Assembly (NCBI RefSeq): GCF_029227855.1
Contig: NZ_CP074356.1
Source of the DNA: Escherichia coli
Lineage (GTDB): Bacteria > Pseudomonadota > Gammaproteobacteria > Enterobacterales > Enterobacteriaceae
Reading direction: 5' to 3' (one strand)
Length of the DNA stretch: 64,000 bases
Shown here: positions 47,341 through 47,557 of the stretch, in pieces
Numbering within the stretch: the stretch's first letter is position 1
Layout: every line of letters starts with the position of its first letter
Position numbers and translations under genes: made by a program
The notes under the pieces: model-generated
Seen by the model: the letters and a program-made list of their open reading frames with translations, nothing else
Told to the model about the DNA's origin: nothing
Databases searched by the model: none

Positions 47341-47557
47341 GATGATCTTTCCCTGCCCATTGGGTTCATTAAGATCAAGAATAATGGGAATATGCTCAAG
47401 AAGACTTTGAATGTTCACCAGACGTCCTTTTCTAATATATTTAATTATTTGGCGATTAAATTTTAATCAAATCAACAAGGTAAAACCAAGATTAAAGTTG
47501 TGATGATAATCACAACTTTAATGATCTTCCCCTGATTCCTCCAGTCCTTTTATTTGG

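Follow-up and report, generated by a model that had tools for sequence, protein, structure and literature searches.

Which genetic element owns a perfect palindrome lying just beyond an rhs immunity gene, and what might it do there? The question arose from a 64,000-nucleotide stretch of Escherichia coli DNA (the window), in which an earlier note, made from the letters alone, had described a perfect palindrome with 11-bp arms at 47493-47518. The repeat was indeed present and perfect, but the coordinates were one base off (AAAGTTGTGAT at 47494-47504, gata at 47505-47508 and ATCACAACTTT at 47509-47519) and the arms were longer than described. Fourteen-nucleotide arms, ATTAAAGTTGTGAT at 47491-47504 and ATCACAACTTTAAT at 47509-47522, were 100% complementary around the 4-nt loop, giving a perfect 32-bp palindrome (14+4+14; 47491..47522, assigned to neither strand). 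When the window was block-shuffled 100 times with its composition preserved, no palindrome with arms of at least 14 nt arose, and those with arms of at least 10 nt had a mean of 0.9 per shuffle. The folding energy of the palindrome was -11.9 kcal/mol as single-stranded DNA (z = -8.7 against shuffles) and -15.6 kcal/mol as RNA (z = -5.4). A second copy was not found in the 64-kb window, where single-arm matches stayed at chance level. Three more perfect palindromes with arms of 10-12 nt were present at 10368-10395, 14762-14784 and 14797-14824; these contained G+C, were terminator-like and were unrelated to that at 47491-47522. An Rfam 15 scan of 47200-47800 returned sub-threshold chance matches only (BTnc231, 20.5 bits with a gathering score of 80.4; drum, 17.5 bits with a gathering score of 43).

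The surrounding DNA was an E. coli rhsE-type locus, 100% identical to that of strain JNEC-KY178. Along the minus strand, a frameshifted Rhs core (48525-52088) was located upstream of an Rhs C-terminal piece (47929..48540), in which a domain search found a Tox-WTIP toxin domain. An immunity-like ORF of 114 aa (WP_001279013.1; 47558..47902, stop codon 47558-47560) came next; it lay downstream of the Rhs toxin tip, and a Pfam search of it gave no match. It was followed by the palindrome and by an ISEc1-type H-rpt, all in the minus-strand order. The palindrome began 35 bp (14-nt arms) or 38 bp (11-nt arms) from the immunity stop codon, so that the distance of about 40 bp given before was roughly right, as was its placement ahead of the H-rpt, whose start (47355) lay 136 bp further on. 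The H-rpt was complete (1291 bp; 46065..47355, minus strand), with CAGGG at its ends and a gene for a 378-aa transposase at 46075-47211. Its limits were set by the CAGGG ends together with the point where thousands of E. coli copies stop matching. No palindrome comparable to that at 47491-47522 was found in the ISEc1-type H-rpt (best score 5, equalled in 205 of 300 shuffles), and no target duplication was visible around it. Flush against its right end was a right-end fragment of another ISAs1 element (45722-46064), comprising the C-terminal 121 codons and a CAGGGCGAAATCA-type repeat; this arrangement, which joins two rhs modules, was shared with one complete genome only (JNEC-KY178).

Between the immunity-like ORF and the H-rpt, homology to ISEc26/yncI left ends revealed a 179-bp left-end remnant of an ISEc26-like insertion sequence of the ISAs1 family (47356..47534, minus strand), referred to below as the window type. 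Its left inverted repeat retained the terminal sequence CAGGGGAAGATCA at 47534-47522 on the minus strand (47522..47534), in which the ISAs1 signature terminus CAGGG and the inner repeat (AAGATCA) were matched with 0 mismatches. The terminus of the element is therefore at 47534, 23 bp from the stop codon of the immunity-like ORF. A CAGGG-type start was common to about 40 ISAs1 left ends from many phyla. The remnant aligned with the left ends of the K-12 pseudogene yncI and O157 ISEc26 from CAGGG through the ribosome-binding site to the start codon, with about 73% identity to ISEc26-type left ends over the shared stretch (reference: the K-12-type copy of strain J31); the homology started exactly at CAGGG, and the flanks outside it were unrelated. 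A ribosome-binding site, AAAAGGA (about 47425-47431), preceded a truncated transposase 5' end (47356..47418, minus strand) consisting of a GTG start at 47418-47416 and 20 further codons. The 21-22 surviving codons, VNIQSLLEHIPIILDLNEPNG, resembled ISAs1 N-termini, namely those of K-12 YncI (VSIQSLLDYISVTPDIRQQGK) and of a transposase on a metagenome contig, L158 (MDIQSFLDHISIIPDLRQQGK). There was no matching right inverted repeat. The ISEc1 abuts the remnant at 47355/47356, truncating it and leaving no right end, so that it counts as a fragment and not as a member element. With 21 codons and no right end, the element in the window is dead.

Intact ISEc26 from O157:H7 (1305 bp, terminal inverted repeats matching at 17 of 18 positions) carries a perfect 14+4+14 palindrome, ATGAAAATCGTGAT gtaa ATCACGATTTTCAT, at positions 13-44. 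The window palindrome occupies the same positions of the remnant; it thus lies inside the end of an insertion sequence, with the outer 5 nt of its arm in the inner part of the terminal inverted repeat. The DDE_Tnp_1_assoc and DDE_Tnp_1 domains were confirmed in the intact ISEc26 transposase and in the neighbouring ISEc1. The same kind of left end was found beside ydcD, at two chromosomal loci, beside an unrelated gene in strain R32_14_1F, and inside another ISAs1 transposase gene (L123). On contig L158, the closest relative of the window remnant, it followed an FHA/CdiA-like repeat gene and preceded a 365-aa transposase ORF; this near-intact element lay outside any rhs locus. Judged by these homologies, the palindrome is a built-in part of the ISEc26-clade ISAs1-family left end and not of the rhs/immunity module. 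The description of the palindrome as a feature of the rhs module boundary was mistaken in this respect, as the sequence around it is a second ISAs1-family element, decayed and previously unrecognised, whose left end includes the palindrome at positions 13-44.

Among 5,426 complete E. coli genomes, 356-379 (about 7%) had the window-type remnant, each in a single copy and always beside the same immunity gene. The ISEc26/yncI-type left end with its palindrome was far more widespread, being present at 80% coverage or more in at least 2,446 of the 5,426 (at least 45%). A search at other H-rpt junctions, as proposed in the earlier note, showed that the palindrome is not a general feature of them. 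The abundant ISEc1-type H-rpt, found at 23,340 places, shared only 47212-47355 with the window, and the palindrome was absent. At the K-12 rhsE locus, a homologous palindrome was present beside an Rhs immunity gene. Four metagenome-assembled contigs labelled Sporosarcina psychrophila, Bacillota, Planococcaceae and Flavobacterium psychrophilum (L010-L013) carried ISEc26 at 94-95% amino-acid identity; one of them (L011) had the E. coli flank on the ydcD side, and these copies are probably E. coli contamination of the bins. A scan of a plasmid collection found E. coli-derived copies only. In a protein scan of genome contigs, the CRP-type palindrome was limited to near-identical ISEc26 copies, with no more-diverged ones to use for covariation.

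The core of the palindrome, TGTGATGATAATCACA at 47499..47514 (assigned to neither strand), matched the CRP consensus TGTGA-N6-TCACA with 0 mismatches. This core, TGTGAT-gata-ATCACA, was the only match to TGTGA-N6-TCACA with at most one mismatch in the 64-kb window. It was also the top site of the window by CRP weight matrix, with 16.2 bits; the 40 sites used to train the matrix (Kd of 10 nM or less; median 16.8 bits, range 9.8-22.1) included the K-12 homologue, so that the score has a relative meaning only. Compared with K-12, the bases flanking the core (AGT/ACT) were less A/T-consensus. An FNR site (TTGAT-N4-ATCAA) was ruled out, the half-sites being GTGAT. A good CRP core was present in every variant found (TGTGA/TCACA, CGTGA/TCACG, TGTGA/TCACG and CGTGA/TCACA). 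Even in a decayed copy from ETEC6335 with degraded outer arms, cGTGA-N6-cCACA was kept. By our own estimate, TGTGA would fall in the exact CRP register of a random dyad about 1 time in 1000.

The K-12 homologue of the palindrome has been published as a CRP site. By in vitro Footprint-seq, atTGTGAtgtaaaTCACGatt (gene yncI, centre 1530492) had an estimated CRP Kd of 0.6 nM (PMC12871828, Table 1), which made it the second strongest previously undescribed CRP site in that list (Wang, Stringer & Wade 2026 preprint, PMC12871828). The site was listed there as intergenic, upstream of yncI, with no mention that it belongs to an insertion-sequence end (PMC12871828). The published atTGTGAtgtaaaTCACGatt was identical to positions 5489-5509 of the K-12 contig L007, the core of the K-12 palindrome. 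The earlier suggestion of a protein-binding site was thus borne out by the perfect consensus core and by the footprint on the homologue. From the location, homology, symmetry and consensus match observed or computed here, together with that in vitro report, we infer that the window palindrome would bind a cAMP-CRP dimer with high affinity; this is its best-supported molecular activity, and any downstream consequence would be conditional on it. The H-NS-bound 'promoter islands' reported for K-12 include the ydcD/yncI interval (PMC3661553), and the region is AT-rich, so access of CRP to the site in vivo is uncertain. A K-12 small protein, YncO, has been detected experimentally (PMC6001520). Its GTG start was located inside the right half of the K-12 palindrome (L007 5320-5505), and its ORF reads outward over the terminus, antisense to ydcD. 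The homologous frame in the window (47501-47536, plus strand; VMIITTLMIFP*) closed after 11 codons. As far as we found, the insertion-sequence context of the site and the family-wide dyad described below are undescribed in the literature; nothing on the palindrome was found in the literature on ISEc26, ISAs1 end structure or yncO.

Canonical activating positions for CRP are -41.5, -61.5 and -71.5. A sigma-70 scan near the site found no sense-strand promoter, and the single plus-strand match (47414-47441) was within chance (2 found, 3.4 expected). Judged by the only conserved -10-like hexamer, TAAAAT at positions 70-75 of the element, CRP would lie near -53.5, outside the canonical set. The idea of a simple transposase promoter activated by CRP was dropped, there being no canonical distance to any conserved hexamer. 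With no canonical activating distance and no convincing sense promoter, a modulatory or architectural role is favoured over classical activation. Taken whole, the palindrome is probably a component of the ISEc26-clade left end that binds cAMP-CRP and survives in the window as a fossil. In a live element, CRP bound 28.5 bp from the tip could modulate transposase expression or, as a repressor or roadblock, stop read-through from the upstream gene. Alternatively, CRP could bend the end, as IHF does at the ends of IS10 and IS1, and so tie activity to carbon status. The symmetry that extends beyond the CRP contacts might be used as a hairpin or as a second dimer site for an element-encoded protein. 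In the window itself, between the immunity gene and the ISEc1 H-rpt, the palindrome is most likely a fossil to which CRP could still be recruited.

The arms changed in step between copies. The window type differed from ISEc26 at three arm positions, and all three were changed on both sides (T:A to G:C, G:C to A:T and T:A to C:G). Paired cells made up 92.9% of an alignment of only six rows, against 27-48% when the partners were slid. A metagenome scan with the right arm unconstrained gave 70 matches representing 7 sequence variants, so that the evidence for covariation is thin. For one pair, all four states exist (T:A, C:G, T:G and C:A), and the mismatched K-12 form is the commonest in E. coli. 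The paired change from TGTGA/TCACA to CGTGA/TCACG weakens both CRP half-sites together, which is not predicted by selection for CRP alone. Quasipalindrome template switching can produce compensation of this kind without selection, and the compensation between the arms could be mutational in this way and not selective. The dyad is wider than the bases read by CRP and its changes are paired, so the element probably needs the symmetry itself.

A dyad scan of 80 ISAs1 relatives across bacteria confined the CRP-type palindrome to the ISEc26 clade. About six other lineages had unrelated dyads without the CRP core at left-end positions of about 8-54, each matched by 2% or fewer of shuffles. These were found in Vibrio (L021/L023), Shewanella (L029/L085), Legionellaceae (L046 and relatives), a Bacteroidota metagenome-assembled genome and Citrobacter, and more weakly in Cedecea; further source contigs in the set were L034, L055, L027 and L014. 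Examples included ATCCCTTATggaATAAGGGAT, AATGTTTTTTGTACAAAAAATATT and a Legionellaceae copy with 19-nt arms. The scan suggests that a subterminal dyad is a recurrent ISAs1 design, filled by a CRP site in the ISEc26 clade. As the palindromes of the other lineages have no CRP core, a function shared across the family, if there is any, would not be CRP binding.

The main rival puts structure first. On this account the dyad acts as a hairpin, in read-through RNA or in single-stranded DNA, that insulates the element from upstream transcription as a weak terminator or attenuator, with the CRP match secondary or coincidental; in the window, the rhs-immunity transcript would in effect end there. The earlier note had held that the bases flanking the palindrome were not U-rich and that it was not a classical intrinsic terminator. 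The first point stood only in part. On the minus (sense) strand the stem (14 pairs, loop of 4) was followed by CTTGGTTTTA and passed a lenient terminator scan, although the run of U was interrupted and began 5 nt past the stem. The second point was reasonable, given a stem that is AU-rich (G-C in 3 of 14 pairs) and a tail, CUUGGUUUUA, that was interrupted and poorly conserved. RNA stems of -15.6 to -18 kcal/mol (z of about -5.4 to -5.9) in three lineages are in keeping with a hairpin, as are the T-rich C[CT]TGG[CT]TTTA conserved 3' of the stem and the paired changes outside CRP-specific bases. Three of the five imperfect pairs were G-U on the sense strand (pair 9 in K-12; pairs 2 and 3 in L158), the unrelated palindromes of the other ISAs1 lineages likewise fit a structural role, and the elements are habitually found downstream of, and co-oriented with, a gene. 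However, the tail of O157 ISEc26, CCTGGCTTTAAC, was poorer in T, the Vibrio and Legionellaceae palindromes had no U-tract, and C-A and A-A mismatches interrupted the sense-strand stem of the L123 variant. No entry for ydcD, yncI or yncO was found in the supplementary text files of the K-12 Term-seq paper; given the poor expression of the locus, this counts as weak evidence. The CRP-register TGTGA, rare in a random dyad, and the retention of the core in all lineages of the clade also argue against a coincidental match. A hairpin with incidental CRP resemblance is therefore a minority view that we consider unlikely.

A somewhat smaller chance is given to a site for the element's own transposase, which would act either as an autoregulatory operator or as an additional subterminal contact by which the two ends are told apart. 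Five outer nucleotides of the left arm (ATGAA or ATTAA) fall within the terminal inverted repeat, which the right end also has, and the palindrome is present at the left end only, between the repeat and the transposase start. Across the family the palindromes are lineage-specific, as expected if they co-evolve with their own protein, and the Legionellaceae arms include the inner repeat AGATCGTCT. This proposal, however, does not account for the identity of the core with the host CRP consensus throughout the ISEc26-clade variants, and the right arm with its flank made an unconvincing inverted copy of the whole terminal repeat. Transposase recognition is accordingly doubtful as the primary role, and binding of cAMP-CRP is kept as the preferred reading.

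The remaining idea, that the palindrome is a recombination or cruciform hotspot marking the boundary at which rhs tip/immunity modules are exchanged, is very improbable: a long perfect AT-rich palindrome could extrude a cruciform (DNA hairpin, -11.9 kcal/mol) and its region is structurally variable between genomes, but the palindrome was intact in all 356 of 356 genomes with the module, no breakpoints have clustered in the 32 bp so far, and the one rearranged copy that does break inside the left arm (TCM_B_2) is a single case. The hotspot proposed in the earlier note thus found no counterpart among the genomes, where the breakpoints were elsewhere, at 47355/47356, at 47387/47388 or at position 13 of the element, where a differently built ISAs1 end takes over. 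In about 44 genomes the homology stopped precisely at 47522; this was considered as a hotspot and rejected, because in these genomes the shared 13-bp terminus leads into another kind of ISAs1 end, which contains a group II intron.

The junctions themselves varied in form. In most of the 356 genomes the remnant was cut 32 bp earlier than in the window, at 47387/47388, and was followed by an 89-bp unrelated segment and then by an ISEc1-type end (for example, L003 from YJ1, 3912-4000); the 47355/47356 junction of the window is the rarer form. The roughly 44 complete E. coli genomes with the break at 47522 had the same immunity gene and the 13-bp CAGGGGAAGATCA, followed by the intron (for example, L090 from E. 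coli B-3008, 600-2500). This intron sits after position 13 of an ISEc1-type left end, encodes an ltrA reverse transcriptase, matched Rfam families RF01999 (92 bits) and RF00029 (62 bits), and is absent from the window. ISAs1 elements were repeatedly inserted in, or lay flush against, a second ISAs1 element of like orientation, at its left-end leader or its first 20-50 or so codons (window 47355/47356, L091 at about 2345, L123, L025 and L016). These repeated junctions suggest either a target preference or recombination between copies.

The true owner of the palindrome is thus a dead insertion-sequence end and not the module boundary. The strong K-12 yncI CRP site (0.6 nM) exists because it was brought in as part of a mobile element, and maps of the CRP regulon will include strong sites of such origin that vary between strains. 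The finding also offers a concrete, testable handle on the control of transposition and the end architecture of the almost unstudied ISAs1/H-rpt family. A bolder proposal, which we advance tentatively and with low confidence, is that cAMP-CRP serves as a dedicated host factor of the ISEc26 clade: bound 28.5 bp from the tip and bending the left end, it would gate either the expression of the transposase or the assembly of the transpososome, and these Rhs-associated elements would thereby become responsive to carbon starvation. In its wider form, this proposal would make the left-end subterminal dyad a previously undescribed ISAs1 architecture whose sequence differs by lineage.

Several known systems resemble parts of this picture. 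The source of the remnant shares with the ISAs1 family (H-rpt; ISEc1, ISEc26) the CAGGG termini, terminal repeats of about 17 bp, association with Rhs loci and one DDE transposase gene whose start is about 117 bp in from the left end; the window, in contrast, retains only a 179-bp left-end stump, and the common ISEc1 H-rpt lacks such a palindrome. Crp affects transcription of the IS50 transposase (Ross et al. 2014, PMC4265352), so that in IS50 (Tn5), as proposed here, cAMP-CRP status is linked to expression of an insertion-sequence transposase. That link is genetic, was called preliminary and has not been connected with a consensus site in the end (PMC4265352), whereas here there is a consensus site, recognised from sequence. 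The K-12 yncI CRP site is homologous in position; it likewise occupies positions 13-44 of an ISEc26-type left end, has the 14+4+14 form with a TGTGA-N6-TCAC(A/G) core and adjoins an Rhs immunity gene (in K-12, at the rhsE locus). The window copy differs in having both half-sites perfect, less favourable flanks and a different immunity gene.

Rho-independent terminators, and the protection of IS10 and IS50 against outside transcription, are also comparable. Like those systems, the present one has a stable hairpin where the element is entered, ahead of the transposase start, so that both arms would be present in read-through transcripts only. The stem here is AU-rich with an interrupted U-tract, in contrast to terminators, and, unlike in fold-back inhibition, the hairpin leaves the ribosome-binding site free. 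Finally, IHF sites are subterminal in the ends of IS10, IS1, IS903 and gamma-delta. Those ends share with the ISEc26-type left end a site for a host protein that bends DNA strongly, centred about 30 bp from the tip and found at one end; the candidate host protein here, however, would be CRP and not IHF.
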